DNA of 61,963 nucleotides, the filler included, from Dugesia japonica (taxonomy: Eukaryota), in assembly GCA_001938525.1 (NCBI GenBank). It is 6 parts of 6 records of this genome, joined end to end, with 100 filler letters (N's around TTAATTAATTAA, not from the genome) between each part and the next. Parts side by side here need not be neighbours in the genome. Positions count along the whole stretch, not along the records: positions 19,785 to 32,149 come from MQRL01607966.1; 5 more parts are not named here. One strand, given 5' to 3'. The stretch's first letter is position 1. Each line of letters begins with the position of its first letter. The notes beneath the pieces were generated by a model. The model was given only the letters and a program-made list of their open reading frames with translations, was not told the origin of the DNA and did no database searches. The translations under genes and the position numbers were made by a program. This document shows positions 7,101 through 60,735 of the stretch, one piece after another.

Positions 7101-7692
7101 TTTCCCGATTGATCTTTTCCTCCACTGTAATATTCAAATGTAGATGTATAAGTTTTAAAATTTATCGTCAACTGTGGTGTAAATTTCAGTATTATTAAAA
7201 TAATAATGTGTTTTAAATTTTAAATAAATTGGAGAGTGATAACACGCCGACTGATACCAGATTATATAGTCAGCTCGGCCGTCGATCAGTTTGTCGCTAA
7301 ACCACTGACGCTGGCTGCTATTTACACAACAATTCTAGAGATAGCTNNNNNNNNNNNNNNNNNNNNNNNNNNNNNNNNNNNNNNNNNNNNNNNNNNNNNN
7401 NNNNNNNNTCGTTGAAGCGAATTTACTGCTTGTCAAATTGTCATTAATAATTCAACTAGGTAAATATTTTTCTATTTACAAATATTTCAAAATTTCTTTA
7501 TCAAATAAAAATCAATATATTTCCTTGTGTACTCAAATCAAAATTCTATTAAATATTTCGAAATTTAATATTCCTTAATTAAATTGTATTATCGATAATT
7601 TTAATTAAATTCAGCCATCCCAATAACTAATAATCAGAATAATATAGCAAAATAATGTAATCAAAATAATATCAAAATATAATGTTGTATAT

Positions 7693-8181
7693 TTGAATAA
7701 CATCAAGAATCACATGTTTGATGGATTGAACTGGTTGAATTGGTTTGATGGATCAAATCATAGTCGCTCCCAAAGAATCAGGCGGTTTCAACATGAAAGA
7801 TTAATTCCTATTTGTACTAAGAAGGTTATTCAATATGGCGTACAAATCCATATTTGGGGATGCTTTTCACGATTCGGTGTAGGAATTTTGAAACGAATAC
7901 ATGGTACGTTGAATTCTGCAACCTATCAAAACAAGATTGTCAATGAAATTGACCTAGTTGGCAAGTGCTTAGTCTTCCCTCTGCGTAGGTTCAGATTGCA
8001 GCACGACAATGCTCCTTGCCATCGATCTGCATCAACATTATCTTTTCTCAGTGAACGTCAAATCGATATATTAAATTGCCCTGGAAATTCTTCTGATGCC
8101 AAGCCGATTGAAAATTTGTGGCATTTCATAAAGATCAAAATGAATGCTTATGAAATTTGGGCGGAGTTACAAAAGATATAG
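7693..8181 (+). mobile_element. Tc1-family (DD34E) transposase fragment
   Basis: Motifs IHIWGCFS, LNSATY and QHDNAPCH...PIENLW, with 34 residues between the second D and the E. Confidence 0.9.
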
Positions 8182-9432: not shown

Positions 9433-9532
9433 NNNNNNNNNNNNNNNNNNNNNNNNNNNNNNNNNNNNNNNNNNNNTTAATTAATTAANNNNNNNNNNNN
9501 NNNNNNNNNNNNNNNNNNNNNNNNNNNNNNNN
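9433..9532. other. Artificial contig-joining spacer (N44-TTAATTAATTAA-N44)
   Basis: 12-mer with stops in all six frames at 9477-9488, flanked by 44 Ns on each side. Confidence 0.97.
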
Positions 9533-19784: not shown

Positions 19785-19789
19785 GGGGC

Positions 19790-20110
19790 AGGTCTTTCTC
19801 TTAATAGATAGCATCGAAAGTATTTCTTGTGGAAAATTGTGACGGGGTGAAAATGGATACAATATTGTTTCTGAAACGATAAAAGTCATGGGGTAAATAC
19901 CGGAGAACCATCAATATCGGTCGCAAAACCCAATCGTTTTGGGAATAAGATATTGCTCTGCATATAATTGGATATTAAGGGCGTGCTATATTATAAGGTA
20001 TTGGAACCCGGTAAAACAGTTATTACAGATCGCTACCAAGACCGACTAATTCGATGGAGTAAACATTTGGAGCTAAAACGTCCGTTTAATGGAAAAGAAA
20101 AACGTTCTGT
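19790..20110 (+). mobile_element. Mariner transposase fragment
   Basis: FLWKIVTG..KWI..AKPNRFGNKILLCI..DIKGVLYY..LEPGKTV..RY..LELKRP, frameshifted. Confidence 0.85.
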
Positions 20111-20133
20111 AAATAAATATTTATATATATATA

Positions 20134-20382
20134 TGGGGTCTACCGATATCAGGGTTTCGGAAATATCGATATTTCATAATAAGTAAATTTTTTAAAATTA
20201 TCATGTTGATTTATAAATATCTCAAGAATTTAATATATCGATACCGATATCAATATTAGGATTAGAAAGCTTTTTAGGATGCTTAGAGTTTGGATGCAAT
20301 ACTGGAAAGTCATCAAATATGACCACTGGTTTTTGTCCTAACAAATACTAATATCGGCAAAAATGCATATCGGTAGACCCTT
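20134..20382. mobile_element. hAT-like MITE inserted in a (TA)n tract
   Basis: Perfect 14-bp TIR GGGTCTACCGATAT (20136-20149) and ATATCGGTAGACCC (20367-20380); TA repeats on both flanks. Confidence 0.75.
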
Positions 20383-21254
20383 AATATATATATAATAGTA
20401 CAAATAATTAAAATATTTGAATAAATTATGCAACATTTTACTAATGCATTCATACCTCACTATACGGCTTTGCGCTTTAACGTCCTATTTGAATTATGGC
20501 AAGTTTTTCGATTTACGACCCAAAATTTTTCGTTATTTGCGCAGGANAAAACAATGTACATATTTTACTGTTTTGTCGCTTTAGTATTAAAATAATTGTT
20601 TCGTTATATGACTATTTGCTTTGACACGTATCTAGAACGTAAAGAGAGGTATGAGTGCACCTAATTATTTTCTTTGAAATATTACATGGTTNNNNNNNNN
20701 NNNNNNNNNNNNNNNNNNNNNNNNNNNNNNNNNNNNNNNNNNNNNNNNNNNNNNNNNNNNNNNNNNNNNNNNNNNNNNNNNNNNNNNNNNNNNNNNNNNN
20801 NNNNNNNNNNNNNNNNNNNNNNNNNNNNNNNNNNNNNNNNNAAGCGCTTTATTAATCTGAATTTATCAATAAAAATATGAACAGCCAAATAAGTCTTTCT
20901 CAATCTTTAACTTTGCAAAAGAATATTTTTCAATAATTGTAGGTCGACCATAAATAGAATATGTAATGTTTAAACTTTAGTAGATTGAAATTATCACAAA
21001 ATAAACAATATAGTTTAGAAAAGTGCTTACTATAATAATGTAAAGCAATTTAAATACATGGTTTGCTTAGTACAATGATTAAGTAGCAAAAATTAAATTT
21101 TGAAGTTTTTATATGCAGAACATTCCTAAAAATTTGTCTTTGTAAATTAATCATGATAGATGTTATTTTGAATCATAAAAAACCTGATAAAATTTAGAAA
21201 AATTTGAAGAACTTCATAAAACAGATAAAAATATGAGTTAAATTAAATAATTTT

Positions 21255-21425
21255 ACAATTGCAATTATTGCGAGAATAATTATTGGACATAACATTGATC
21301 GTTTTTCAGAATTCATTAAAATAAAAGCTTCGATCGAAATTTGTTTTTTACTGTTTTTGATAATAATTTTGAATTATTATAAAAAACAAAAAAAACTAAT
21401 TTTGATCGAAGCTTTTATTATAAAT
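21255..21425. repeat. Back-to-back copies of an abundant short interspersed repeat (GATCGAAGCTTTTATTTTAATGAA...ATTATTCTCGCAATAATTG)
   Basis: Same family at about 22630-22825, 23491-23545, 32262-32575, 41775-41850, 43206-43290, 46480-46510 and 60780-60795. Confidence 0.8.
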
Positions 21426-23170
21426 TTATTTAAAAATAACTTGAAACTGTTTTTAATTTCTAAAAAATTATCCATTGATACATGGAACTAAATTTTTAAA
21501 GATAAATAAACGAAATCTTCCATAAATACAATTTTTAATTTGTATTCCAAAAAGTGATATTCATTGAGGTGGAATTTTTTAATGTTTAACTATGAAAGAG
21601 TGAAAAACTTATCTAATTAGTTGCAAATGAAGTAAATGGTTAAGTAAAGATGTAAACGATTACAAATATAAGAAAACTAATTTTAATTACAATACTTTTG
21701 GCATAGGAATTTATAAAAATTCAAAACCATTTTAAAACAATTTATAAAACTGTTATAAATTATAACAATTAAGTATTTCAAAATTATGGTAAATATAACA
21801 GTTTAGTGCATTATTAACAATGATTGAATTATTATTCCAATGACACAATATAATTGAAAAATAATAAAATATATCAACAGCTTATCGGATCAATGATTTA
21901 TAAATTTCTTAGTAACAATCAAACAATTAAGTTGTGTAATTATTTTAGATGTAAAGTTTTATTAATTACAATCTTAAAAATAAAAGATTTTATCAGAATG
22001 TTAAACAACTTACACTAAAAATACCAACCTCAGAGTCGTGTACTTTATTAATTACACTGCCCGGAGTTTTTTAACTTTAAATTTTATTCCAGATGAAAGG
22101 TATCTACCATATATATTTCGTTTGAGCGGATTCCAAATATAATATCAGTTTTTCTGTATCACGTCTTATTTTGGAGAAAATTCACTTTTTGAAAAACAGG
22201 AAATTTACATAAAAAGCACCTATAAATTTAAGCTGACACGTAACTTCGATACCAAAACTAAGTCAACTGATTTTTTATTTTAAAGTACTATCAAATTTTG
22301 AGCAGCCAGTAAAAATCCGCCATCATGCGCTCACCAGCACGGCTCTGGTATCGCTTTTCGATGGTACTTATCGTCTGGTGAAATATTTCACCATGTTCGT
22401 CATTAATTTTCCCAAAATCTTTAGGGAAAAAGCTCAGGTGGCACTTCAAGTAGTGTTAATAATTATTAAAGACTATCGAAAAATCTTTACAACTTTAATT
22501 ATTACTGGAATAGTTGTTGTACTCAATCATTGATCACATTTTATTAACGTTAAAATAAATTAAAAATTGTAAATCAAAAAGATTTTTCACTAATTTCTTG
22601 TTAGATATACAAAAAATTTACACTTTTCAGGTTTCATTAAAATAAAAGCTGCCATNAAATTATTTTGGTTTTTCATAGTATTTCGAATTTTCTACTTTGT
22701 CTTCGTCGAAAATTCGAAATATTATCAAAAACAAAAATAATATTGATGAAGCTTTTATTTTACTGAAATCTCAAAAACGATCAATGATTACATTTAACAA
22801 TTATTCTCGCAATAATTGTAAAACTACACTTTTTAATTTATTAAAAATAAAAAAATCATTCAAAAAGCATAAATATATATTTGACTAATAAGGAAAATCC
22901 AAAAATAATATTATTACAATTTTTGATATCAATAAATTTTTATTTAACCATTTTCTGTCTTATTATTACTTATTTATTTTCATATTAACCTTAAAAGAAT
23001 CTTTGAGACGTATCTAAATGCCTGTTATTACTTCATAGAATTTTCTATATATTGTAAAAAATACTTTTCCGTGATTAACAAAACTAGTTTCGAATAACAA
23101 CTGACTACTTTATTAATTAAATATAACCAGATAGCCAAGGGTTAATGAAAAAACAAAGTGTTCTCATTAG

Positions 23171-23793
23171 CAGGGCCGTCTTAAGAAATTCTGCGTTCGT
23201 AGGCTACTAAAACTAATGCGCCCCTCTTCGTGAGAAAATTCACAGAATAGCAAACGAGAGCGAAGTGTCCGGCAANNNNNNNNNNNNNNNNNNNNNNNNN
23301 NNNNNNNNNNNNNNNNNNNNNNNNNNNNNNNNNNNNNNNNNNNNNNNNNNNNNNNNNNNNNNNNNNNNNNNNNNNNNNNNNNNNNNNNNNNNNNNNNNNN
23401 NNNNNNNNNNNNNNNNNNNNNNNNNNNNNNNNNNNNNNNNNNNNNNNNNNNNNNNNNNNNNNNNNNNNNNNNNNNNNNNNNNNNNNNNNNATAAAACGAT
23501 CAATGGTTATGTCCAACAATTATTCTCGCAATAATTGCAATTGTCTATCGAAGTTTATGGCATCGTTTGTCATTCCAGCACATTAGAATATAGAAACCAG
23601 TTAAATATTTTAAGAAATTGTTTTAATTTAAAAATACGTGAAAACTAATAATATGAAAAATGAATTTTTATAAAACTAATAACTAAATGACTAATAATAA
23701 CAAAAAATATAAATCGCAAATAAAAATTGCCGCCCAAAAAGGCTTGCACCCTGGGGCTATAGTCCAGTTTGCCCTGTGGTTAGGGCGGCTCTG
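23171..23793. mobile_element. hAT-like non-autonomous element
   Basis: TIRs CAGGGCCGTCTTAA and (rc) CAGAGCCGCCCTAA; 8-bp TSD ctcattag/ctcattaa. Confidence 0.75.
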
Positions 23794-24215
23794 CTCATTA
23801 ATTTAACCACTTACCAGTTGTAATTTGGTACTAAATAGCAAAGAAAAGTACTAACGAGCACCCAGGAGAACTACACATATCTAACATGCCGCGATACACA
23901 GCCATTTTCAAACTAAAAGACCCCATTGCTGCGCATCATAGATAGGATGACGCAAGGAAANCAGTTNCCAGGACTTCAATATGGTCAATACGTGAAGGTG
24001 TTTCACAGACCGAAATAACCAACAATCAAATTTAGAATCTGTTAGCTGATTTTGAATTTCCCTTTGACGATCTAATGATGAAACTCTTCAAGAGCAGATA
24101 TTTCTAAAAGAAGTTGAAAGGACTTAGATATGCAAGAACCCAGACACAAAGTGTGGACTCTTCCTTGCACTAGAAAAGCGTAAAATTTTCTCTAAACAAA
24201 CATGAGCTAAGTTCA

Positions 24216-24313
24216 GTCGACACTGCTCTCGAGTATAGTACTAACTAGGTAGTGCTGCTTAACTTACGAGATCGAACGAAATAGGGTATATCTAAAATAG
24301 TATAAACGTCGAC
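24216..24313 (-). pseudogene. 5S rRNA pseudogene, internally deleted
   Basis: The reverse complement reads GTCGAC...CCCTATTTCGTTCGATCTCGTAAGTTAAGCAG...CCTAGTTAGTACT...GTGTCGAC. It retains the 5S GATCTCG/box A/TTAGTACT motifs and the terminal helix I, but is 98 nt and lacks the box C region. Confidence 0.8.
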
Positions 24314-24862
24314 ATATACTATACAAATATTTTTTCTAATGATTGAAACAAATATTGACAATTTCTTTTAAGTAGATAAAATTTTATCTATAAATTTATT
24401 TTATCAAGAACCTTTATCATAATAAATTCACCAGAAAGCATTGTCATTATAAATATTTAGCCTTTTTAATAGAAATGTCGTTTATTTATTATTAATATAA
24501 CCTAATTGATTCAGCTGGAATAAATATTTAAATAAAATTGGAAGAGCATAAGATACATTATATAAATATATAAAACTAAAAGGTAAATAAAATACAGTAA
24601 ATAGTTTTGTATAATTTGAAAATTTCACATACAAAATACTCTGCATAATAAAAAATTCCGCTTATAGAGAACAAAAACCACCTGTCCCGCATATATTCTT
24701 ATAAAACACGGTTCATTATAATTTAATAAATAATAAAAATTATATATTGCAATTATAAAATTTATTTATGTTTAAAATATAAAATTTATGAAATTTAATT
24801 TCATTACATTATTACAAAAATAATTTGTAAAGCAATTTAAATAAAGTTAATTATAAAATTAC

Positions 24863-24974
24863 TTTTAAAACTTTAATGACGCACTTCTCATTAGTCACCA
24901 CATTAACGCCTTCAAAAACTTCACTATATTTACCTCGACCAAGTTTTTTAACTATTTGATAATCATCCTGATTT
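24863..24974 (-). CDS. CSNK2A1: Casein kinase II alpha, coding exon 2
   Basis: 112-nt exon, (R)[37 protein letters not shown], with acceptor attcag and donor GTAATT. Contains the GRGKYS glycine-rich loop and the VIK lysine. Confidence 0.95.
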
Positions 24975-25017
24975 CTGAATTANAATTTAACGAGTTTTCT
25001 TCATAAATACGACAAAC

Positions 25018-25112
25018 CTCCACTCTACTTGATATGCCTCATAATCCCAATACTCTCTTGGTCGATTAACATTAACGTCAGCATAAATTCTAGATTTGCT
25101 TGTTACCGGCAT
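25018..25112 (-). CDS. CSNK2A1: Casein kinase II alpha, coding exon 1
   Basis: [31 protein letters not shown], followed by a 43-nt GT..AG intron (24975-25017). Later exons were not found in this contig. Confidence 0.95.
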
Positions 25113-26340
25113 TAATAGAGTACTGATTAAACGAAATAAACCAAATTTATTTGTCAATGTCCGTAAATTTAATCTTTGAATAGTAAATAGCAAAAAAATA
25201 AAATGTTTAAAACAGTCTGAAATTTAAGCTATACAATTATTACACTTTCGTATTGATTAATACGATCCAAGAAAACGAAAGAAAAATTTATCATTTTAAA
25301 TATAACGAGTTATTTAAAATAACTTAAACAATTTGATACATATAAACATGGAAGAAATTAAAAATTAAAAAAATCAAAAAAAACTTGAAGGTTATTGCGA
25401 ATAAAGATAAATTATTTCCTTTAAAAACTAAGTAATTTAAAGTTCATTCTTCATTTAACTAAAATTTTGCTATTAATAAAAAAAACTATGTAAAAAAGCT
25501 TTTGTATGAGCTTTAATTCTGATTGCTAAATAATCGTATCTGTCAGTATCAATTCATGAATTTCAAATATCTGAGATTTTTTATTTTCATTTATAATATT
25601 AAAATTGGTTTTTTGAAACTTTTAAAATATAAAACAGGTTTTTTAATGTTGGGTATTTCTACTCAACAAGTAATTTATGGTTCGATTATTTTATAACTAC
25701 TGATAGATAATATGTTTGTGAATTTACGGGTGTTGATTTTTCCCTTTATATGTTCGTACAGTATTATATAAACAATATCTTAATAAAATTTATAAATAAA
25801 GTTATATCGTGTATGCTTCCTATATAAATAACTAATAAATACCTTGAATAATTTATTTTTGATGTATAAGAAATACAAATGCAACCTTAAACCTTATTGG
25901 CAGTATTTTAGAAATAAGCTAGAGATGCCTTACCAGAGAGGTCGGATTCTAGCTGAATCAAAAGTTACTGGAAAATAGCTAAAACTGATCAGTATTTATA
26001 TTGATTTTACATACGTAGGCTATACACACATCAATGAATTGATCAAAATATAATTGTTACTAATAGATATTTTTTATAATAAAATAATCAATATTTACAG
26101 ACCATTAAATAAAATTAATTGTTCAAAATAAAATAGAATTATTATTCACATAAGTATTCAAGAAATAACACAGACAAAGTGAAAACAGAATCACATATTA
26201 TTGACTTTCAAGTTTATCGATCGGATCTTGAATTGGGTTGCATCGAATGTTGAAACAGAATTGATGTCCATTTGAATCTATCAGGTGTTGATTCGAATCT
26301 CATGTCAAGATTGATGTTTATGTCATTGTTTTTGTTGTGT

Positions 26341-27403
26341 TTATTTTGTCTGCATGCTGTGTTGTATTATGTAGATCTCAGATCTCAACAAATGTACCCC
26401 CTTACTAAAAGATGCTCCGTCATCTTTACGGGAATAGAAATCGTGGGCAGGCCATGTCGTGTTATGCTGATAATACTTCATCCATATAGGTTCATTGAAT
26501 ATACAAGCGGGGAATTCATATTCGGGGTTGATACTCGAAGGAGAGGTGGAAGGGTCTCTTGAAAAAATGTTTCTTGGGTTATGCAATCTGGAATATCTTC
26601 TGGTGCGGATCGGAGGAATTCATCTGTCTGCTTATAGTTCAGAAACATTCGTGGATATTTGGCTGTCTGGTAGACCTGTGAACAGTTTCGTATTTCGATG
26701 TTATGGACTAGCAGATTATATCTTTCTCCATTTCTGGTGGCCTCTGTGAATTCTTGGTTAAATTCTAACTTATTTAGGATTTTAATCGTATCAGAGAAAT
26801 GAGATTGTTCCCTTTTAATAACTGAATTAATCTGCTTTTCTGTTTATTAGGAAGGGGTCCATAGCTGATGGTACGGATATCGTCATTGATTTGTTTAACG
26901 GAAATGGAGTCGCGCTGTGTGCATATAGTGAGGAATTCACTAGTGGGATCGCTTTTATCTGGAGTGTCAATTTGGTACATGAAAGGTGTTAAATGAGCAA
27001 ACCTAAGGTTATTATTATGAGGCATTTTTATTAACAAGGTGAGAGGTATAAATTGTCCAATTGTTGGGACTTGTTGATGACAAATTTCGGCACGTACATA
27101 ATTTTGCTGGTGAATTTTGTAAGTCCTACATGAGGGACAAGGGACGATTCTTGATGCTGTGACGTCGAAGTATTGTGTATTGCAGGAAAAACTAAAGTAG
27201 TGCCCACATTGAGCTATTCTTGGCATTATAGGTTTATCATAACATAAAGGGCATATAGGGTTATGATCAACAATCAAGGAGACAAGAGCAATATCGCGCC
27301 AGCTATAGTCAAATGGATTTTTTATGTTTCTGTGTTTCTCATATAATACAATACGGGCATTATTTTGCAGGAATTTCCTTCTGGACTGAATTGTTAGCTC
27401 CAT
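26341..27403 (-). pseudogene. RNF10/Mag2-like RING E3 ubiquitin ligase (retroelement cargo, frameshifted)
   Basis: FLQNN..YSWRDI..CPLC-x11-CGHYFSFSC-x14-CPSC..IGQFIPLTLL parallels RNF10 FLQAN..VNWDFV..CPIC..CGHIFCWAC..CPIC..VGDTITMQLM. After a frameshift near 26800, VYQTAKYPRMFL..DIPDCI parallels the RNF10 FYQAEDGQHMFL..SPEKI block. Confidence 0.75.
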
Positions 27404-27502
27404 ATTCTTAAAGTATATATATTAAATCACATACTCATAACATAACGACGTTAATACTAATAATTTATATATACATATATGTGTATGTGTAATCAGCCTA
27501 GA

Positions 27503-29067
27503 TTATTTTAGTCGATCGATGGACACATTTAATAGATTGTTATCTGTTTTATCTATGGCTAATGTGAGTAGTGCGCCATCTTGTGTCATTGCAACTTTGT
27601 TAAATAGCGTGTTTTCTACTATGAATTTCAACTTCTTGTTGCCATTTTCTTCTATCTTTGTTAAATGGATTCTCTTTTTTCCATACCTTAGGTAAATATC
27701 AGCATTTGGTGTCGTGTGAAATCTAAATTCTCCTCTCTTCTTGTTTCTTTTATTTGATGTTTCTTCCCAACTAACTTCTGGTTCAGTTAAATATATACCC
27801 GGTTCTGGTCCTATTGAATCGTCACTCTCACTATATGGTACATATACACCATCTTCTCTAACTTGGTCTACCGTAAGATCCTTCAATTGTTCGTCGTCGT
27901 TATCAGATTCTGTAAGATCTATACTGCATCTTTGTTCTACCACCCCTTCCATTTCTCCGTCTCCCATATCAGACCAATATTCAGTACTGCTGTTTAGCTC
28001 TCCTTCATCAAAATCACAACTTTCCTCATAGTAGTGAATTGGAACTTTTTTCGACTTCTCGATTACCCACTGTTCATCCTTTTGACCTTGGATCGCAAAC
28101 TGTCTTTCTTCTTCATCCCTTTGTCGTATCACTTCTTCATCTTCAGATTTGGGATCGTATCCAATATTGCCATTTATTTCCCTTTCGTCTAACTTGATAT
28201 CGTCTGAGTCTAATTTGACTTTTATATCTATGTCTTCCTCGGATTCCGAATCCATTATCCATCGAATACTTATTGGCTTAACCACTTCCCTAATTGCAAT
28301 TTCCTGTATAGTGTCCTGATCTCCTTCATCTATTGATATATTACTGGTTAGTATCGGTTGCAAGGAATCTTCCCATTCCTGTTGGCTAGACATCTGTTTG
28401 TAAGTTATCCTGATTAGCGTCGTTTTTTTTGCTGTTGATTCATACTTCGTATTTCTAGCTGTATTCAACACATCCTTTATAATATATTCGTGTCTTAATG
28501 ACTTAAATACTGCTTCCATTAAATTAAGGAATTTAAGCTTCTTGACATTTGGAGTGTATTGTCGTCTCCATTTTTCCTCTGCGAGATCTCTAATGCCAAT
28601 TACGTATGAAGGCTTATCAAATTTTTCCCAATATTATATCCTACTAGTATTTTTCCATAAATTAGTTGCCTTGCTTTCAATATCAATGGGTAAGCATCTT
28701 TGTATTGTCGAATTTTTTCCTGATCACATCCTGTGATATGATAGTCAAAATGTCTAATTTTTTCTCTTGGACTGAGAGTTTCAACCATTAAAATAGTTCC
28801 ACTGCTTGACATAATAGTTATCTCTACTAACTGTGGGTTAGAATACACATCTTTTACTGTTCTCATATCAATACATACCGTAAGTTGATAAATATCTTCT
28901 GCCATCAATATTGCATATTTTATAAATGACGTATAGTTAAGTAGATCTATATAGGAAACAGTGCAGTGTCCCCTAATGCTCGTGAAAGATGGAAAAGGTA
29001 TAGGTATCCGATCATGGTATATGATTTCTACTGCTAAAACCGCTGGATATTTTGTATGGCTATCCTA
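27503..29067 (-). pseudogene. DEDDh (REXO4/ISG20-like) exonuclease-fold protein with acidic tail (cargo, frameshifted)
   Basis: The frame is open from about 29064. VCIDMRTV..LSPREKIRHFDYHITG..LIYGKILVGYNI..(frameshift near 28605)..IRDLA..DVLNTAR runs into the 338-aa acidic ORF. Confidence 0.7.
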
Positions 29068-29128
29068 ATATTATTTATATTTTTATTTATTATCTCTTCA
29101 ATTATTAGTGAGGTGTTGTTAACTACAG

Positions 29129-29686
29129 TTATTTCATTTTTGTTATGCGTGAATTTGATAGGGTTTTTGTAACATGCATTCGAATGGCTTTAATAATTCT
29201 TTTCCCTTTTTTCAATGCATTTTCAGGGTTCTTGGGGATCTTTATATACCCTATTAATTGTTGAAGAGTGTATCGCTTTGCTTCCTGAAATCGTATCATG
29301 ATTAAATCCTTATCAAAGGTGTTATTTTTTAATGCATTAGGGATTTTTGCCACCTCATTAAATGTTTCTATTCTGGACTCGGTTTGTTTCTCTTTAAATG
29401 TAAAGTTNNNAATGGTATCATAAAATTGTGGGATACTTTTTGTGGTAAAGGTAGAAGATGAAGGCATATTTGTTGTGTCACTCTCTGTATGTATGTTTGT
29501 GTCTGTTTGATTATTAATTTTTTGTTTGTTGTTACTTTTGCTTTTATTATTTTGTCTTGCTATATTTTCTTGTGTCTGCATGTTATGTCGTATAATTGAT
29601 TGATTGTTATGTATGAATATTTTTGTTTGTACTTTGTATTGTATTAACTGTTGACTGACTGCTGCAAATGCGGATTGTTCGAGCAT
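29129..29686 (-). CDS. Orphan accessory ORF (185 aa, N/T-rich linker, basic C-terminus)
   Basis: ATG at 29686 (MLEQSAF...); AATAAA about 40 nt after the stop; co-oriented with pol. Confidence 0.45.
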   Translation of the reverse strand: MLEQSAFAAVSQQLIQYKVQTKIFIHNNQSIIRHNMQTQENIARQNNKSKSNNKQKINNQTDTNIHTESDTTNMPSSSTFTTKSIPQFYDTIXNFTFKEKQTESRIETFNEVAKIPNALKNNTFDKDLIMIRFQEAKRYTLQQLIGYIKIPKNPENALKKGKRIIKAIRMHVTKTLSNSRITKMK

Positions 29687-29759
29687 TTCTTCTAAAACAA
29701 ATGAATAATTAATGATTGAATTTAAGGACTGGTTAGTCCTATATACTGCTACAGGTATT

Positions 29760-30702
29760 AGTAGCTTATTATATAAATGAAAATATATATAAATAATAAT
29801 ATGAAACATTACAATTATCATTTTGAAATTTACCGCGAGGTGTTCAGACCAATGTCCATAGGACAAAATTTTGGAATATGCGGGGTATTGCGCGCCAATA
29901 ACGCTGCCTCTTCTACCTGTATCGCTTATGTATTTGTATTAATGTAGTTATGAAAGCGAGGAGGATTCTCAATCATTCTCAATATTGAGAAAGGATGATG
30001 TAATATTTTTATGTGAAATGTTTTTACTGTTGTGGTGGTAATCCATAATTGTAGGATTTTATGTCGCAATTGTTGATGATCGAACTTGATGTTATTATTC
30101 AAAGTTTTTCTATTTCTTTTCGAATTTTTGTTTATACTCATATTTGTTGTCATTTTCACTGTGTAGGTATTATGATGAATAGTTGTTTCTATTTGTGGTT
30201 TGGTTGTACTCGACCTTTCTTGTCTTGTAAGAATAGTCACAGATCTCGTCTTTATTTGTGATTTGGTTGTACTCGACGTTTCCTGTTTTTTTGAAGGATT
30301 CATTAACTGTCTTTGTGGTATAATCAGTTTCTTTGGTAATGTGGTAAATATATACTGTCTCAATAATTTGACTCTGCTCATTCTATACTGTATTCAAATT
30401 CTATATGCTGTGTCAGCTTCTAGTCCTTTTATCTCTATCTGGCCTATCCCTTTGCTCAATTTTATTGATATTGCTGTAAAAACATATCTCTTCTTCGTGG
30501 TGTATTCATTTACTCTGACATATTCGTTTACTTGCTCTTTTATTGTTGCAGCGATTGTTATATTATTCGGTGCCTTCAGTACGATACTATTGGGATATTT
30601 TATCCTTTCTATAATACCAAATCCTTCTTCTTTCTCCAGTTTAGCTGCACCTACTGTTAATAATGTCACTAAAGTTAGTGCAAAGAGTGGTAATGCATTT
30701 TG
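29760..30702 (-). pseudogene. Env-position ORF: signal peptide, FN3-like domain, Thr/Ser-rich stalk and hydrophobic tail
   Basis: In frame with KYNLRSE*: NALPLFALTLVTLLTVGAA, then PNSIVLK...IEIKGLEADTAYRI*I...FTTLP (FN3-like), a 21-aa S/T repeat, and terminal CFILLFIYIFIYIISY. Contains in-frame stops. Confidence 0.55.
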
Positions 30703-32149
30703 TCATTCTGATCGAAGGTTATATTTGTGTTGTTTTTCAGGTTCAATTTCTGNNNNNNNNNNNNNNNNNNNNNNNNNNNNNNNNNNNNNNNNNNNNNNNN
30801 NNNNNNNNNNNNNNNNNNNNNNNNNNNNNNNNNNNNNNNNNNNNNNNNNNNNNNNNNNNNNNNNNNNNNNNNNNNNNNNNNNNNNNNNNNNNNNNNNNNN
30901 NNNNNNNNNNNNNNNNNNNNNNNNNNNNNNNNNNNNNNNNNNNNNNNNNNNNNNNNNNNNNNNNNNNGTTTGAATTTTACTTTTAGATTGGCTTGTTTAT
31001 ATACCTCTTGTAGTCTTTCTTGCATTTTTGTAACGTAATCTAAATTATCCATATATTGTGACACAATTGGCTCAAATGTTATATCTATCGGCATATGATT
31101 TTGTCTGAGGTACACAAGATAAAATGGGGAATATCCCGTGGCTTCGTTCTCAGTTGTATTATGTATGAACAATGTTGACTTAATAAATAGATCCCAATCA
31201 TTTTGATGCTTATTTACGAAAAATGCCAATCTTTTACATAATGTACTGTTAAATCTTTCAACTAACCCATCAGTTTGTGGGTTATGAGCCGTCGTATTTA
31301 TTTTTTTAATATCAAACATATTTGTTACTCGTTGTATGACTTCATTGAGGAAACTCTTTCCCCTATCTGATAGCAGCTTTCTTGGCGCTCTATATTTGTA
31401 TATTATCTTTTCAACTAATAACTTTGCTACTGTATCTGCTGTTTCATCTTTTGAAGGAAATGCCTCTGCCCACTTTGTAAAATAGTCATTTATTGAATGA
31501 ATGAATAAATGAATAAATAGTCATTTATTCATTCATTGAATACTAATATATGTTTGTTGCCTTTTATAGTTGTTGGTAATTTGCACAAAAAATCAATTGC
31601 ACATGTTTCCATTGGTGAGCTAGGTATTGGCATTGGCTGTAATGGGACTTTGGTTTTTGTTCTTGTATTCTTTCTTGTGGCACAGATACTACATGCTTGA
31701 CACCACTTCTTTACATCCTCTTTGATATTAATCCCAATAGTATTTTTGTAGTAATCTTGACGTGGTTTTTCTACTAAACAGGTGCCCTCCGAGCGCTCCA
31801 TCATGATATTGCAATAGTAATAATTGTTTTAGAGAATCTGGTACAACCATCAGATTTTACCCTAAATTATTGTACATAAGTAAATTCTTATACATTTTAT
31901 ATTTAGTATTCTTTTCTTGAATCATCATCTTTTTAATTTCTTGTATTTGTTTATCTTTAGTTTGTTCCTCCAGAAATGTTTTTGGGTTTTTTCCCGCCAT
32001 AACGATTGACATCATTTCTAATATATTTATTTCTGGAATTCTTGGTAATGCATCCGCATTTTTATTTGCTCTACCTAGCTTGTATATAATACGTATGCTC
32101 ATATCTTGAATTTTCATTGCCCACTTCAGTATTCTACTGGATGCATCTT
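30703..32149 (-). pseudogene. Gypsy pol C-terminus (end of RNase H, integrase Zn finger and DD35E core)
   Basis: RILKWAMKIQD..NKNADAL, CQACSICA, CAIDF, LLSDRG, NPQTDGLVERFN, TGYSPFYLVY, and KYNLRS after an N gap. Confidence 0.93.
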
Positions 32150-32249
32150 NNNNNNNNNNNNNNNNNNNNNNNNNNNNNNNNNNNNNNNNNNNNTTAATTA
32201 ATTAANNNNNNNNNNNNNNNNNNNNNNNNNNNNNNNNNNNNNNNNNNNN
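32150..32249. other. Artificial contig-joining spacer
   Basis: TTAATTAATTAA at 32194-32205 between two 44-N runs. Confidence 0.97.
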
Positions 32250-34899: not shown

Positions 34900-35567
34900 A
34901 TATTCGGTATCAGACAATTGCTGATTGAGATGCTGTTGTTTATAATGAAAAGCGATATTTGGTAACAACATTTGGAAGGATTGAACGTCAATCCACTCCA
35001 TGAAGCTCAATATGAAGCTGACTCCACCATTGTTTGAAGAACCTCGTGATTTTCAGCAAGTAATGCAATGTCATCAGCATATGGTAGTATAGAGACACGA
35101 GAATGACTACTCTGAATTCCAGCATGTATGATTACGTTGCATTGTTCAAGAAGAGGGTTTAAACCATTATTGAAAATAAGAATTGAGATAGAACAGATTT
35201 GTCTGACCTTTTTAGAAATCAGAATGAAGGACGTTGAAGTGAATTGGAAAATATTTGTAGAAGAACATTGGTGTTATATTGATTGAATAAGTTTCGTAGT
35301 GTGACTGTCCATATCCATTCGACTGAGTATGCTCGTGATATGGGAAACAGAAATAGAATCCTAGGGATCAGAGATGTCAAGGTAGGCCAGATGAACCTCA
35401 TTTACCGGATTTCTCTTTGAGTTTTCAAAGAGTGCTCTGAAGATGTTATTGTGTTCTATGCATTCTTCAGATTAGATGATGGAGGATCCAAAATAAGCAG
35501 TCCTCTTGGTCGGATTGAGATAGGTGAGATTTCCCATGAAACTACTGTATAAGATATGGGTCGACTA
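34900..35567 (-). mobile_element. Non-LTR retrotransposon reverse transcriptase fragment
   Basis: RPIS..ECIEH..LAYLDISD..KVRQICSISILIFN..PYADDIALLA..SGLTFNPSKC. Confidence 0.88.
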
Positions 35568-36652
35568 GCGGCGTGGAGTTGCTGTAATTCCTTAATTGCT
35601 GAGAGCAGCTCGATCAACTGTTGTTGTTTTTGCTTTATTTCAATTTCCCGGTCGTTACACATGTTTCTTAACATGATGATTTCCTTCTCTAGTGCAGCTT
35701 TATACGGTTCATTGTACTCTAATGATAATTTATCGATTCCGGCTTGCAACCGTTCTCGGTTGGCCAAGCTGGTTAATAATTGATTTTCTAACCGTTTTTT
35801 TTCGAACTGCGAATTAAATAACTCCATTCGTAGAATTTGGGTATTTTCCTGTTTAATTGACACTTGGGTTTCTAATTCCCTTTTCTTTGGTTCGATCTGC
35901 TCGAATTTATTTTTCCAATCGCGAGCCTGTTTTATCGCATTTGTTTTGGCTCGATTTTCATCCAGGTTCCTATTTATTAACTTTTAATGTGCATTGCAGG
36001 ATCGTTTTTTAATTTCAAGTTCTTGTCGAATTTTCTCTACCTGATTTTCCAGTTCGTTATTATAGTTTTGTAATTCTAGGTTTAAGAGGGCATTTATTTT
36101 CGAATCCAATTTCCATTTTAAGACTTCGGGTACAGATGTGAGAGATTGGTTCTGAATTTGGAAGATAATTTTAGATAGTCTGTCTGTTTCAAATTTGAAT
36201 GCCATTTCTATTCTATTTTTTGACATGTTCCATTCCAGTCTGCATGACGTTTCCAGTATGTCTTTTTATTTTAATTATTTTGGTTGATTATTTACATCTA
36301 AGTTCAATAGGAAAGGGCAAGTGAGAAACAATATTTTATGATCCCTTTCTGGGTTATCATTCGTTCTCCATTTATGCAGATTTCTTTGTCAGTAGATACA
36401 TTTCACTCGGTCTGGATGATCTAGAGTTTCAAAGAAATAGAATTATTTTATAGAATAGAATTTTCAGTTCATGGCGGTTGACCTCTCCCTTAATGGGGGG
36501 TACACACCCACAAACCTTGGTATTCGGGTTCAATGCTTTTCCCTTATCTTATATAAATTTATTAGAGCTGATACTACTAGGAACATTTACTACTAAAACA
36601 TTTATAAGTTGCTTAAAACACTCGGAACGAGCCATTGCTCCGGATCGTCCAT
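35568..36652 (-). pseudogene. BIR (IAP repeat) domain plus long coiled-coil protein
   Basis: FYFFETLDHPDRVKCIY*QRNLHKWRTNDNPERDHKILFLTCPFL has exact C-x2-C-x16-H-x6-C spacing (36400-36317, second Cys is TGA). It is in frame with ORFs 36226-35984 and 35863-35456. The start at 36652 is tentative. Confidence 0.8.
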
Positions 36653-36682
36653 TGTAAAGTTAAACGCTGCATAATCATCCTC

Positions 36683-36985
36683 CTAGTTCCACTGAATCCA
36701 AGTTGGGTTACCGATCTGACGGGAAAGATCTGCTATATACTGCTTTAAAAAATCGATCTTCCTCATCAGCAGCTGTTTGTTTTCGTCCTCTAGCGCCTTA
36801 GTTTGGACCGCTAAATCGTTTTGTTTTTTAACGATTAAGTCCAACTTTTTAATAAGTTTGTCACGCTGGCCAAGATGTTTTAAGAGAGCCCTATCTACTT
36901 TGCGCTTCAGATGGCGTTCCAACAACAAGCGGCGCAGGATCCGGTGGCACCTTCGCAAGCTTGTGAGAAAAAAAATGCGTGGCAC
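36683..36985 (-). CDS. Small basic coiled-coil ORF
   Basis: 100-aa open frame with heptad-like L/K/E pattern. No 5' ATG; preceded by a splice-acceptor-like ctctttatttAG. Confidence 0.4.
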   Translation of the reverse strand: MPRIFFLTSLRRCHRILRRLLLERHLKRKVDRALLKHLGQRDKLIKKLDLIVKKQNDLAVQTKALEDENKQLLMRKIDFLKQYIADLSRQIGNPTWIQWN

Positions 36986-37101
36986 TAAATAAAGAGTATA
37001 ATTAAGTCGGCTAAAACCAGTGTTAAAAACAGAGAAGCAAATTAGAGTTGATACAATTAAAACACTTTATTAAAGACAGTCGAAATCATAAACGCGGTGG
37101 T

Positions 37102-37479
37102 TCATGAGCGGTTGGTCTGGGTACCTTTATCTACCAGGAGTGGGGGTAAAGGCATGGCCGTCTTCAACTTCAGGATATTCTCTATTAGCTGATTTTCACG
37201 CTCTTGGTAGGACTTGATGAATTCAGTGAGGGTTTCGACTTGCGCTTTCCATACCCTTTCCTGTTTCTGGGTTGCTTCCATCTCAGATTTGAAAGTCAAG
37301 CACTTCCGTTTATATCGTTTGACTTTAGCCTCGGCGGTCGCGGTTTCTACTTCCCACCGCCGTTTCGCGAGCCTGTATAAATCCCACATAAGCTCAATGT
37401 CTTCGTTGGATTCGCTTAATTTCTTATTTGGCGTTTGGGATCTGTTCAAGGAAGAATGCACTGAAATTACAAACACCAT
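37102..37479 (-). CDS. Small coiled-coil ORF
   Basis: 125-aa open frame with an ATG start and AATAAA about 30 nt downstream of the stop. Confidence 0.45.
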   Translation of the reverse strand: MVFVISVHSSLNRSQTPNKKLSESNEDIELMWDLYRLAKRRWEVETATAEAKVKRYKRKCLTFKSEMEATQKQERVWKAQVETLTEFIKSYQERENQLIENILKLKTAMPLPPLLVDKGTQTNRS

Positions 37480-37591
37480 GAATAAAGTCCGAATCTTAAC
37501 TTATGGATAATTTAGTAAAAGAAGATAGGCGGGCTACTTGATAAAAGAAAAATGAAGAGTTGGTTAACAACGTTTATTCTACGTAACAACA

Positions 37592-38020
37592 TTACAGGGA
37601 AACCTCTGTTATTTCTTCCTCGGTGTTTTCATTGTTGCTATTAGAAGCCTCATTTCGTGCACTCCAAAGGTAGTTTTGAACAAANGAGGATAATTGAGAA
37701 GTGGAAGGTAATCGATTCGTGGTAACACCGATTAAGGAAGGTCCATCATGCCACAGACGCTCTACCTGAGGCACAACGGTATTTCTCTCAAAAGAAAGTG
37801 CAGCTGGAGGAAATGCAACCCAATCTCGTCTAGGGCCACACCAACTGTAATAGGCACTCCTTTCCGTCGCATCCCACTGTCTTTCATCTGCTGCGTGTTC
37901 GGTGGAGATGTTGGAGCGATCGACTAGAACACCGGCGTCACGATTGTGCGGGTTTTGGTACCTTTTAAATACCGTTCGGCCTGAATGAATATCCAGACTC
38001 ACCTCCCACTTGAATTCCAT
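37592..38020 (-). CDS. Orphan ORF (142 aa, MEFKWEV...)
   Basis: TATAAAA at 38094-38100, ATG at 38020, AATAAA at 37573-37578. Confidence 0.5.
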   Translation of the reverse strand: MEFKWEVSLDIHSGRTVFKRYQNPHNRDAGVLVDRSNISTEHAADERQWDATERSAYYSWCGPRRDWVAFPPAALSFERNTVVPQVERLWHDGPSLIGVTTNRLPSTSQLSXFVQNYLWSARNEASNSNNENTEEEITEVSL

Positions 38021-38919
38021 AATGCCGGTTCTAAAGTGACGACTAGTGAGGCTATATCTATTGACCAAATGGTATGAATAGACCTGATGAGTGTTTTATA
38101 ATCAAAATGAGTTCTAAAATTTATTTTATAAGATTAGTATTTAAATTAACACCAAAGAAACAAATATATTTTTTGGATGACATGAATACACAAATGGTTC
38201 AGAGGGATTTATTATTCCTCATCTATATCCACTTTACATTCGAGAGGGAACATCTCAACGAATCACTGGAGATCGGTTTCGTCGGGGTGTTCCACTTTGC
38301 CCTTCGTTAAATAGTGGGCTATTAATTGTTTCAGGCGAACGATTCGAAGCTGTTTCTTTATTTGACGGAGTGTGGCTCACAGTATTGCTGGCATTATCTA
38401 GGAAAGAAAAGAAAAAATCTAAAATTATCACACAAAATCATGGTGTGGATTTCAATTTCCTCTACAAGAAGATTTTTATGTTACTGCGGTACACTATTAA
38501 CGAGATGGTTTGGTCCCGTAACAAGGCATTAATCCATTAAATTTATCGCAAATTAAAGATGCGCCATGTATTATTCGATAACATCCCCTTCTTCATAATA
38601 AGGATTTTTAGGGCTGAGCACATCATTCTTTGGCATTTCTTATCCTAATAATCAGATAATAGGAAAAAATTATAATATTGGCGAAGATTTTACTCATCAT
38701 AATGATGGCATTAATAATACCTGGTCACTAACAGGATTCATAAATTACACTAACATGAAAAAGTGATGATCATCTAATTATATGATGGTGACTATTCCAG
38801 GTGAATGATTTTATTAGTAATAACCATTGATAATACCAGCCAAAACAATAATGATGGTATCGATTTTAATACTATTTATGATGAGGATGGTACTAATAAT
38901 CATAATCCATAGAATACTT

Positions 38920-48136: not shown

Positions 48137-49187
48137 TTACAACTGTTCAATGTGACCTCCTTCAACTTTCTCACAAAGTTCTACACGATTCAACAGCTCC
48201 TTCTGTCAATTGTTGTTTTTATTGTTTGATTTAAATGTTTCTAACGCTGCAAAAATCCTCTCGACCAATTCCTCTTTATTTTTTGGTTCTCCAATTTCAT
48301 AAGCTTTGGATTTTTTGTGGCACCATATGAAGAAGTCTAATGGATTTAGATCTGGTAATCTTGGCGGCCACTCCACAGGTCCATTTATTCTAATCCAACG
48401 TCTTTGAAAGTGCACATCCAAAAAATTTATCACCACCTTAGCTCGGTGGGATGAACATCCATCTTGCATGAACCACATTTTTCTTCTTATAATAAGTAGA
48501 ACATTTTTGAGTAATAATGGAAGCTCCAATTGCAGAAATTGTTGATAAATATTGGTGTTCAAATGACCACAAGACGCGATACCCGATTTTAAATTGTCCG
48601 ATCAGTCCTGCCCATACGTTTACTGAGAATCTTTTTTGAAAATTAGTTTCTCTTATCGCATGTGGATTTTCTGCTGCCCATACATGTTCATTATGAGAAT
48701 TGTTGATTCCGTCCCTTGTGAATGTAGCCTCATCGCAGAATAGAACAGTTGGAATCAATTGTGAGTGCTGATTTAACCATTTGCCAAATACTACTCTTTT
48801 TTCAAAATCACCTTGGTGAAGCTGTTGAATGTATTTAAAATGATATGGATAAAGGTTTTCCTCACGTAACCTCTGTCAAACGGTTGTTTGCTTAAGTCCA
48901 GTTACAGCTGACATTCTTCGTACGCATGATTTAGCATATTTATTTACTTTTTTCAATATGACCTCAGCTCTGTTTCTTCTTTGTATAACTCTTTCGCTGC
49001 ATTCCTTAGGGAAACATCCTTTTTCTTTAAGTGACGCTAAGACACGGCAAAATGTTCCACAATCAGGTAACCTGTGGTTAGGAAATCTTTCGCCATACTT
49101 CTTTCTAGGTACGGCGAAATTACCGTCACAGTATCCATACAAAAATGTCATATCAACGTACTCCTGATCGGAAAATTGAAATGGCAT
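48137..49187 (-). pseudogene. Near-complete DD41D (rosa/Visitor) Tc1/mariner-superfamily transposase
   Basis: MPFQFSDQEYVDM..VLFCDEATF..VNVWAG..FMQDG-(41 aa)-D in WPPRLPDLNPLDFFIW..GGHIEQL*, with stops and one frameshift. Confidence 0.92.
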
Positions 49188-50313
49188 TATGTCTAATCTA
49201 TAATATTCAAATGATAATAAAATATTCAAATATTAAAATACTTTAATTATTAATAAAATTTATCTAATTTTAAAATGGTGCGACAATAATATATTTTTGT
49301 TTGGAATATTCAAAAAGCACTTTTAATAGTTTGAATATTAATAAATATTAAATAAATACAACGTTTAATAAATATTAAATAAATATAAGTATTAATAAAA
49401 ATTAATTATTCGATCCTCAATATCTTGTAAATGGTTGATAATCGGACCAATGTTTATAAGACATTTTTTGCTATAAATGACTCAAGGAAGCTAACTCCCC
49501 GAATAGTGTATATGATATACATTTCAGTGTTGTTTATATCTTTACCTTACGCAACATACTATTAAAAACATTAAAGAAAATTTAGATTATCAAAAAATAT
49601 TATTGGAAAAATGTTAGATTTAAATAATCTTTTATTACAGAATTAGTTTTGGTATTTCATAGTTACTACTTCCAAACAAATTGCACTGAACTTACGAAAA
49701 TAACATTAACGTGAAGGATGGGTCTTTTTACTTGCGGAAATATTTTTCAAAATTTTAAATGATCATTAAAAGTGATTTCAAATTTTTAAAAAATCATAAA
49801 AATTTTAAATGAATTTTAATTTAATAATTCATAACAATTTTTCTTTTTAAATGAATGTTTATTTGTAACTATTGTTAATCAAAAATATATAANNNNNNNN
49901 NNNNNNNNNNNNNNNNNNGAAAAAGTAATTTAAAATATAAACTTATTCAATATTCTCACGGGCTTATGTTTTTTATTTTATCTTTTCATTGATGTTCCAC
50001 AAAATTATAATTTCAATTTTTGATTTCACAACAACAGCCCATAAAATAGTCAATGCTTGTTTATTTATTAGACAATAAAATGAAATTAACAAATTCTATG
50101 AAAAAAAATAAGCAAAGAAATTCATCGTTAATATTAACTTTTTAAAAATATTATTTAAATTAATTATATAAATATAAGTTATTTTTTATTTGATTAATAA
50201 GAAAATAACATATTTAAATTTTAAATTTGTTAAATTAAGAAATATTATTTTATTTTTGAACTTAAAATTTTCGAAATTTATTTAATTTATTTTTTGTTTG
50301 CGAAGAAATAATA

Positions 50314-57525: not shown

Positions 57526-58455
57526 AAATATATATTGAAATGGCATTTCAGAGTTTTTATTTAGATATTTATTTTGATAAATATTTTAATTTTCATTTTT
57601 GTTTCATTTTTCAAAGACGTTTAATTATTTCCAATAAATTGTAAAAAGTGACTACTTAAGAAAAAGTTATCATGTTTAAAAGTGGTTACTTCATTACCGG
57701 ATTTACCTATAGACTAAATAGGCTTAAGCCTAGGACCTCGAGTTCTATGGGCCTCAATTCAAGGTGTAATGAATTAATAATGAAATTTTACGCTAAAAAT
57801 ATCTATATATTGAAAATTCGAACATTTGAAATGACTTAACTTAATTAAATGCGTTGTTATTTATGCACACTTTATTATTTTTCTTGGAAAAAGTAAGTAT
57901 AGAGACTCGATGTCCACAAGAGTTGTTTATTTACGTACAACCAGACAATGTCATAAACTGCTCTCCGAAACCCAAACCTTTCTAACGAATTGTTGCAAAT
58001 ACGAAACACGTGTTAAATGAAAAGATTAGTATTATTATATTAATTATACTAATAATATATTGAATTTAACATATTGATATTATAATGTTGATGTTTTATT
58101 ATATTTTATCATGTGCTTTAAAATAAATGAAAATGGAATATAGAGGGACAAGGCCTACATCGAACCAACACTGTGGAGGGACCTCCTAAGTAAAATAGCC
58201 ACAAAAATTTTTAAAAATTTTTTAAACAAAACAAAATCGTTTCTAACTAATTTTATACTTACAAATTTAAAAACTAAAAAACATTAAAAATTTTAGATAT
58301 TTCCTTAATTTTTTCTGTGGTAAGTTGACTGACAATGACACAAATGATGAAATTTTAAAAATACTTAGTTAAATTATTGTTTCAAAATATAATTATTACA
58401 TTTATTGTGAAAATAGCAATTTAAATAGTTATTTTGAAAAATTAAAAACATTTAC

Positions 58456-60061: not shown

Positions 60062-60735
60062 TGAGAAATTTGCAAAGTTAAACTAACATAATAAATTGTT
60101 AAATAATCCTTGTCAATAGTCCAAAAGAATTTTGATTGAACAAGTTCGTAAGAAAATCCTTGACTGCAGGAAATAATTCAAATAATAAATTGGATACTGC
60201 TGAAATTTTTTGTATGCAATGAATCGGAGGAAGTTGACAAACATTCACTATTACACACAAACATGAATTAACTAATATTATCGCAAAGAATTGACTGTAC
60301 ACACCGATTAAATGTTAGCAAAATATAGAGTCATGATTATTTTTCTACCCCTTTATTTTTATAACATTGTACATCACTTTGTATTTAAACCATGTTTCTA
60401 AATTTTGGGATTCTTTATAATTATTTGAAATAATTGGATCAGTGGCGAAAGTTTTTTTAATGTTATGAAATTCTGCAGAATTCTAATATAAATTATTTGA
60501 AATCAATTATTATTTTACACTAAAATAAATTTGCACTTTTAAATATTTTCAACATATATTGTTGCTTGCGTTTGTGTCACTTGATTCCTGATACTATTTA
60601 TGCATTAAACAGAAATTCCAGGGCATTTATTGTTCATAATCCAACTTTTTCTGTTATAATGTACTTGAAAGTTGTAATTATAATGATATATTTAGCTATA
60701 ATGATATATTATAATGATATATTTAGGAGCAAGAG

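Follow-up and report, generated by a model that had tools for sequence, protein, structure and literature searches.

We examined a stretch of 61,963 nucleotides (nt) of Dugesia japonica DNA (the window; assembly GCA_001938525.1), in which the part taken from MQRL01607966.1 (positions 19,785 to 32,149) carries, on the minus strand, a decayed copy of a multicopy Ty3/Gypsy retrotransposon with extra genes 3′ of the integrase. Reading the minus strand from the contig gap at 32150, we found the end of RNase H (identified by what we take to be its motif), the integrase zinc finger and the catalytic core, split over several frames; this order, RNase H followed by integrase (H2C2 and rve), is that expected for Ty3/Gypsy. 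Both minus-strand integrase matches in Pfam (Integrase_H2C2, E 3.6e-4; rve, E 1.7e-6) fell below the cut-off because the copy is broken. The linker at 32150 removes the 5′ part of the element, and the order across it is not assured; artificial contig-join linkers (an N run, TTAATTAATTAA and an N run) lie there and at 9433, 19685, 40431 and 50314. After the integrase, the minus strand holds open frames at 30702-30397, 30393-29929, 29938-29132, 29064-28603, 28633-27506 and 27421-26777, with smaller pieces down to ~26344, and the copy is interrupted by several stops and frameshifts. An original prediction, made from this sequence alone, had described a Gypsy integrase followed by four co-oriented open reading frames (ORFs) lying 60-100 nt apart in a decayed copy; the integrase, the common orientation and the decay were all recovered, and the gaps measured 104, 64 and 99 nt. 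The features are given below, with L001 denoting a more distant, intact relative.

30703 to 32149, minus strand: 3′ end of Gypsy pol (RNase H end, integrase zinc finger, catalytic core, tail), assigned by Pfam and the L001 integrase match; it has a stop and frameshifts and an N gap at 30753-30967, and is truncated by the contig gap at 32150

30637 to 30702, minus strand: hydrophobic segment resembling a signal peptide, in frame with the integrase tail (hydropathy 1.85)

30337 to 30642, minus strand: predicted beta-rich ectodomain with one in-frame stop, FN3-like by analogy with L001 only

29929 to 30336, minus strand: Thr/Ser/Lys-rich stalk of uncertain frame, placed by translation, frame bias and copy length differences near 29.9 kb

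29744 to 29839, minus strand: transmembrane (TM) segment (hydropathy 1.96), likely the surface-protein anchor, with an L001 TM segment at the matching place

29686 to 29720, minus strand: splice-acceptor-like site (rank 1 of 382 AG sites), first exon base 29691, 5 nt before ATG 29686

27503 to 29686, minus strand: likely a single gene of ~728 codons, now in several frames (the L001 counterpart is one ORF, 691 amino acids (aa) from its ATG), comprising an unknown N-terminal domain, a DEDDh-like pseudo-exonuclease (~28893-28340), an acidic region and a C-terminal domain

27404 to 27502, minus strand: the only true non-coding spacer, TA/CA-rich, with stops in all frames and an acceptor-like end (rank 4 of 382)

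26344 to 27403, minus strand: compact RNF10-derived RING gene, assigned by zf-C3HC4, an RNF10 profile and trees

25396 to 26343, minus strand: multicopy non-coding 3′ region, a candidate 3′ untranslated region or long terminal repeat (LTR), bounded by a depth drop below ~25400

L001 is a 6071-nt metagenome contig bearing the compact RING protein P0006 (one locus among 51 pattern matches). Over 127 aa, the L001 integrase shares 49.6% identity with that of the studied copy (E 5e-36), and L001 has a GPY motif, whereas the GPY/F module region of the studied copy falls in the N gap. The first frame of L001 runs from the integrase core and tail, with no stop, through a signal-like segment, a beta-rich ectodomain, a short Thr-rich stalk and a TM segment. 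A stop follows the TM tail and the downstream genes are separate: an RNF10-like gene (445 aa), whose RING matches that of the studied copy at E 2.6e-12, and then a 717-codon frame with a DEDD-like domain. Judged by these matches, the same three gene kinds stand behind a related integrase in both elements, the last two in swapped order. The predicted linkage of the cargo to this kind of pol is supported by this second element, and we rejected the reading of host genes merely lying beside an element. We consider it very probable that the cassette is conserved and element-borne.

Repetition of the studied stretch was assessed with contigs of two DNA-type runs (X1 and X5) placed at 85% likeness, for which summed depth is not equal to copy number. 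All 19 bins from 26150 to 30899 had a summed depth of at least 413 (X1) and at least 160 (X5), against 11.6 and 10.4, respectively, in the flank at 24900-25149; the whole cassette stretch is multicopy. The multicopy region ends near 25396, with depth at the single-copy level below ~25400. Among the outcomes that would count against it, the original prediction had named ORFs that are single-copy or unlinked to this pol in other copies; we found the cassette multicopy and, in L001, linked to pol. Contigs joining distant parts in both DNA runs included one from 28281 to 29273 (34 letters on the short side) and one linking 25600 to 31293, whose short side of 25 letters makes it weak evidence; such joints are as expected from internally deleted copies, for which the shorter ones are weak evidence. 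The X1/X5 depth ratio flips at 25400-25650 and 29650-29899 (X5 above X1, opposite to the rest of the cassette), which suggests sequence common to another repeat or solo LTRs there.

The RING at 27403 onward matched zf-C3HC4 above the Pfam cut-off (E 2.1e-6). Its gene is open for 209 codons and then frameshifted, its 3′ end being approximate; the part below 26777 matches P0001 weakly (E 0.27). A HMMER search with the RING protein retrieved 170 proteins at E ≤ 0.001, of which the best relative, P0001 (386 aa), was 36% identical at E 4.4e-30, with residues 4-208 aligned from its own start; P0003 (319 aa) and P0006 (445 aa) begin at the same place, and the second-best match, P0002, was dropped as a bacterial repeat protein. 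Four of ten longer relatives looked up sit in clusters named RNF10 or RNF10-like, and the clusters of a further ten had no informative name. We then compared the compact proteins with a host-type RNF10 profile of 628 positions, built from 87 of 158 retrieved proteins (500-830 aa, compact ones excluded), a set itself collected with the RING protein of the studied copy. This profile covered positions 124-472 in P0001, 158-478 in P0006 and 150-408 in P0003; in the studied copy it covered 121-274, the RING region. The second conserved RNF10 domain is present in P0001 and P0006 and mostly present in P0003, and the basic helix after it is kept in P0001 and P0006. The earlier assignment of the RING as RNF10-like thus agrees with the Pfam match, the names of its relatives and the profile.

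All eight zinc ligands are kept in the three intact compact proteins (P0001, P0003 and P0006); the RING of the studied copy has seven of the eight, one position being substituted. Directly after the last RING Cys, K/R stands in four of four compact proteins versus 3 of 80 host-type ones; we take this residue to be the RING ‘linchpin’ position, which favours ubiquitin transfer. The RING starts at residue 49-54 in the compact proteins versus a median of 180 in 94 relatives of at least 500 aa, although a start within 60 residues, found in 26 of 158 proteins, is not unique alone. The C3HC4 RING has RNF10-type flanks, as in RNF10/Mag2, whereas the host N- and C-terminal extensions, and with them the full-length RNF10/Mag2 architecture, are absent. 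In trees, the four compact proteins lay on one side of a branch with a Shimodaira–Hasegawa-like approximate likelihood ratio test (SH-aLRT) value of 87 (44 rows), or 98 on 41 rows with three long rows dropped; they were long-branched and apart from host RNF10. Searches elsewhere returned no protein related to the RING ORF at a similar or greater length (word-index protein search), a single 2743-aa fish protein (alignment search with the RING ORF), nothing in viral-contig scans with the integrase, P0006 or the L001 DEDD gene, 19 viral-contig loci with short, weak RING-region matches (alignment scan), and one 24-residue chance match in prokaryotes. The RING protein of this lineage is quite probably an active E3.

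We read the pieces between 29686 and 27503 as likely one gene; the span from ATG 29686 to stop 27503, ~728 codons, is near the 691 of L001. A 154-aa piece of the studied copy scored RNase_T 0.91 in Atlas, where 24 of 30 matches were RNase T-type exonucleases, and a two-row DEDD profile against PDB gave ISG20L2 (E 0.24) and SDN1 (E 0.85) as the top two of four matches. The region had no Pfam match, and single-sequence PDB searches with the DEDD and surface segments gave nothing relevant. Among 40 pairwise comparisons of pieces of L001 and the studied copy, only that of the two DEDD-like pieces was clear, with none of 500 shuffles as high. The N-terminal domains aligned weakly with matching spacing (9 of 500 shuffles as high, in one of the 40 comparisons), and the N-domain against the 269-codon frame (7 of 300 shuffles) fails multiple testing over the 40. 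A DEDDh-like identity is likely on these matches.

The exonuclease itself is likely inactive. In both elements, the residues aligned with the Exo II Asp of ISG20L2 are non-acidic, and Arg occupies the Exo I Glu position; we placed Exo I by what we take to be its motif, and our placement of Exo III is tentative. Since the loss of acidic residues is common to both elements, it is not merely decay of the studied copy. The DEDDh fold and the dead catalytic site proposed at the outset are in keeping with the Atlas and PDB-profile likeness and with these substitutions. Both DEDD-like genes end in an unrecognised C-terminal domain of ~100-150 aa (L001 5400-5876; studied copy 27800-27506), preceded by a low-complexity region that is Pro-rich in L001 and acidic in the studied copy; the two C-terminal domains showed no similarity to each other or to Pfam.

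The surface protein appears to continue the integrase frame. The stop at 30703-30705, between the integrase tail and the signal segment, is private to the studied copy: the 42 (X1) and 29 (X5) contigs that cover this codon differ within it at their full depth, and the same junction is open in L001. For the L001 ectodomain, Atlas gave FN3 0.94 (172 shared features, recognition below threshold) and Pfam gave fn3 at E 0.068; its model was all-beta, with a predicted local distance difference test score (pLDDT) of 57, the best PDB matches were FN3 domains (Foldseek top E 9.7e-4), and there was no viral structural match at E ≤ 0.001. We infer the FN3 identity of the studied copy's ectodomain by position and layout, direct support being limited to L001. 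Of the FN3-like surface protein first claimed, the predicted surface protein therefore stands, whereas FN3 in the studied copy itself was not confirmed, with no Pfam or PDB match. At ~200-260 aa the ectodomain differs from the F-type and gB-type fusion glycoproteins of errantiviruses; we rejected a fusogenic env on this short ectodomain, the FN3-like all-beta L001 model and the lack of a viral match.

Downstream of the surface protein, the original prediction had placed an orphan ORF, which would start at ATG 29821. We read its start as the anchor of the surface protein because the hydrophobic segment at 29839-29744 matches the place of the L001 TM segment and ATG 29821 is missing from most other copies. 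A stand-alone orphan gene was rejected on these grounds, and the ‘orphan’ most likely combines the membrane anchor with the beginning of the DEDDh gene.

The motifs that had been taken to mark spacers are all in place (AATAAA at 29091/29087, TATAAATA at 29079 and TATATAAA at 27471). The minus strand is AT-rich, with AATAAA 16 times and TATAAA 10 times in 5.7 kb, and the first ‘spacer’ (29925-29822) holds neither. The stretch at 29071-29090 lies inside a frame open from 29189 to 29037, which has the best coding bias there, and length differences among copies occur nearby. Of the three ‘spacers’, two resemble coding DNA at frameshift sites, and internal TATA/AATAAA promoters were rejected, the motifs being common on the strand and these two spacers coding-like. 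The picture of four separate ORFs, each with its own TATA/AATAAA spacer, was abandoned on the same spacers and on the unshared orphan ATG.

Acceptor-like sites precede both downstream genes. Besides the top-ranked site at the start of the DEDDh-like gene, one with first exon base 27406 lies 3 nt before the RING ATG (rank 4 of 382), and those in L001 rank 3 and 4 of 313, at 0 and 44 nt before ATG. It is suggestive that in both elements the two downstream genes follow acceptor-like sites rather than promoters of their own; ‘intronless’, as the frames had been called, holds for the frames themselves, but there are acceptor-like sites ahead of two gene starts. Three expression units with splicing are, we think, likely. 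This agrees with bdelloid ORF3s, which are typically expressed from spliced messages (PMC5408684), and with Cer1 CERV (PMC10309623).

On balance, we favour the view that this Gypsy lineage carries an RNF10-derived RING gene, a likely dead DEDDh gene and a surface protein, with the RING protein likely a ubiquitin ligase acting on host 40S. The surface protein (signal segment, FN3-like domain or domains, Thr-rich stalk and TM segment) would be made in frame with Pol and cleaved at the internal signal segment; it would serve attachment or signalling and not fusion, and it has no recognisable fusogen. The two downstream genes would be translated from spliced subgenomic RNAs, like retroviral accessory genes. 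On stalled 40S, host RNF10 monoubiquitylates uS3 (and uS5); it promotes the dissociation and decay of these 40S, depends on scanning and is kept low by upstream ORFs (uORFs) (PMC11604940, PMC12008924). The compact RNF10 would keep the RING and second domain and lack the host termini, and expression from the element would escape the host uORF control. Made by the element, it would mark stalled or scanning 40S, and the chances seem about even that it thereby clears stalls on, or tilts translation toward, element RNA; whether the ribosome is the target of the RING protein we judge evenly balanced. The pseudo-exonuclease would bind RNA 3′ ends uncut, shielding element RNA or titrating small-RNA or decay factors. 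Maelstrom and EXD1 are inactive DEDD derivatives that kept RNA binding (PMC5408684), and we give an RNA-binding role for the dead nuclease an even chance. These genes likely form a long-standing toolkit directed at host translation, because a distant intact relative carries the same gene kinds, and we infer that the cassette manipulates the host. A bolder form is possible, though we hold it only tentatively: an undescribed, virus-like ‘complex’ Gypsy lineage in which a spliced, unregulated RNF10 rewires 40S quality control, the dead exonuclease shields RNA and an FN3 adhesion protein replaces a fusogenic envelope.

Several observations weigh against the favoured view. In pol, summed depth reached 19,000-56,000 in X1, many times that of the cassette, so many relatives are without the cassette or it is too diverged there; no X1 or X5 contig spans the whole stretch; and we found no LTR ends in the studied stretch and no clear polypurine tract at its 3′ side. 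L001 is the only other element seen in context. The second RNF10 domain was not detected in the studied copy (profile E 0.7 and 1.3), and the tree carries a long-branch warning. The ectodomain of the studied copy matched neither Pfam nor PDB, and the surface proteins of the two elements showed no detectable similarity (171 of 300 shuffles as high). The DEDD assignment is built on weak but concordant matches, and the predicted fold of the L001 region spanning the unknown and DEDD domains is of low confidence (pLDDT 35). The acceptor score was ad hoc, with weights set after the sites were seen. In two oligo-dT RNA runs, of which about a quarter each was examined (337 and 56 reads on 7.5 kb), the cassette had a mean depth of 0-2.9 per direction, and no RNA joint fell in the cassette among the 15 of 31 joints listed. 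Depth was highest at the neighbouring host gene (52.7 at a host exon), and the element family is nearly silent in these two samples.

In the main rival reading, the cassette is conserved while its RING protein is retargeted to ubiquitylate a silencing or antiviral factor, or serves as a decoy blocking host RNF10. The long branches, the loss of both termini and the basic residue after the last Cys, which hosts rarely have, would suit this, as would the other ubiquitin and apoptosis domains that Burro elements carry (PMC6431247). Against it, the second RNF10 domain and basic helix kept in P0001 and P0006 fit contact with the original substrate, and the intact zinc ligands speak against a pure decoy; we regard it as unlikely. 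Chance capture of functionless host gene fragments would fit a studied copy that is disrupted and has almost no expression in the two RNA runs. L001, however, keeps long frames and all zinc ligands at ~25% identity to the studied RING and with gene order changed; these intact frames and ligands point to long selection on the cargo, and a neutral cargo seems to us barely credible.

The remaining alternatives concern expression. Pol through the DEDDh gene may form one giant, protease-cut polyprotein as in Burro, the RING gene alone being separate: a 269-codon open frame (29938-29132) spans the TM segment, the acceptor-like site and the unknown domain, and coding bias runs unbroken from 30.8 to 27.5 kb. 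However, L001 has its stop after the TM tail and separate genes, and the best-scoring acceptor-like site lies mid-frame, 5 nt before an in-frame ATG. We think this arrangement improbable, although the polyprotein and spliced readings are compatible and can coexist. The layout first proposed, of four monocistronic genes that each have a TATA promoter and a poly(A) signal of their own in 60-100 nt spacers, would account for the motifs at their places and for 27502-27404, a real spacer with TATATAAA. Such motifs are nonetheless common on this AT-rich strand, two ‘spacers’ look coding, copies differ in length there or lack the ATG, and L001 is without the four-gene layout, which leaves this proposal very unlikely.

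Among known systems, Juno and Vesta of bdelloid rotifers are Gypsy-like LTR elements with extra genes after pol, including a DEDD-family nuclease and TM proteins (Rodriguez et al. 2017, PMC5408684). The studied element resembles them in having extra genes 3′ of pol, a DEDD nuclease and a TM protein. Each of their families carries a single ORF3, a DEDDy (RNase D-like) nuclease whose catalytic residues are intact (PMC5408684), whereas the studied element has three gene kinds together and an RNase T/ISG20-like nuclease with substituted acidic residues; its best matches are of RNase T/ISG20L2/SDN1 type, not the catalytically intact DEDDy type of bdelloid ORF3. The available text of PMC5408684 names neither RNF10 nor FN3. 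Burro/GYPSM1 of planarians is a giant Gypsy with many captured domains, fused in frame with pol (PMC6431247) in a polyprotein of ~5000 aa. Its ubiquitin-pathway domains are MATH/TRAF, SUMO-like and an AIR1-type Zn/RING motif, and RNF10, DEDDh and FN3 are not among the Burro domains described in the accessible part of that paper; Burro holds its cargo and a fusion-type env between gag and pol (PMC6431247), whereas the cargo of the studied element lies 3′ of the integrase. PMC10175614, in the part available, merely names Burro among giant elements.

The env-carrying Ty3/gypsy errantiviruses share a membrane-anchored protein in env position after pol, but their env proteins are F-type or gB-type fusogens (PMC13524379), whereas the studied lineage has a short FN3-like ectodomain with no viral match. 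The words ‘RING’, ‘exonuclease’ and ‘fibronectin’ have 0 occurrences in the main text of PMC13524379. Host RNF10 and yeast Mag2 (PMC11604940, PMC12008924) have the C3HC4 RING and RNF10-type flanks in common with the compact proteins, and with P0001 and P0006 the second conserved domain as well; unlike host RNF10, the compact proteins are 319-445 aa long and long-branched, with both termini gone, and are probably element-borne and intronless. In C. elegans, the Gypsy element Cer1 makes its accessory protein CERV from a spliced RNA whose acceptors precede the ATG; CERV acts on element RNA, but it has no obvious homology outside nematodes according to the available part of PMC10309623, and we liken it to the studied genes by description alone.

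Gypsy elements with extra genes are thus already known, and the RNF10, FN3 and dead-DEDDh cargo is apparently new: the literature searched gave no description of an LTR element with RNF10, an FN3 surface protein or a dead DEDDh among its cargo, although Repbase/Dfam, subscription journals and supplements may list such families. If our reading is true, this would be, to our knowledge, the first mobile element to encode a ribosome quality-control ligase. A captured host gene is retained by a selfish element only if it is of benefit, and a conserved element-borne RNF10 would, if true, mark 40S quality control as a site of host–retroelement conflict. As compact natural proteins that would mark a minimal RNF10 core, these also offer a test of how RNF10 recognises stalled 40S, a question named as open in PMC11604940. 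An FN3 protein in env position, if true, would give Gypsy elements a new way of acting at the cell surface.

Beyond the element, a host casein kinase II alpha gene has its 5′ exons at 25112-24863 on the minus strand (PDB E 1e-14); both RNA runs show splicing of its 43-nt intron (24975-25017). Position 25268, which lies ~130 nt from where the multicopy region stops, is the end point of many X10 molecules, and the element may lie in, or supply, the promoter region of this gene. At 35400-38100, minus strand, a GC-richer stretch holds several broken coiled-coil-like frames with no significant Pfam match and is possibly another decayed element. A 546-codon exon of a sodium/calcium exchanger (Na_Ca_ex, Calx-beta) lies at 58442-60082 on the minus strand, and Tc1/mariner-transposase-like fragments with DDE_3 and HTH matches lie at 7648-8181 (plus strand) and 48206-49232 (minus strand).

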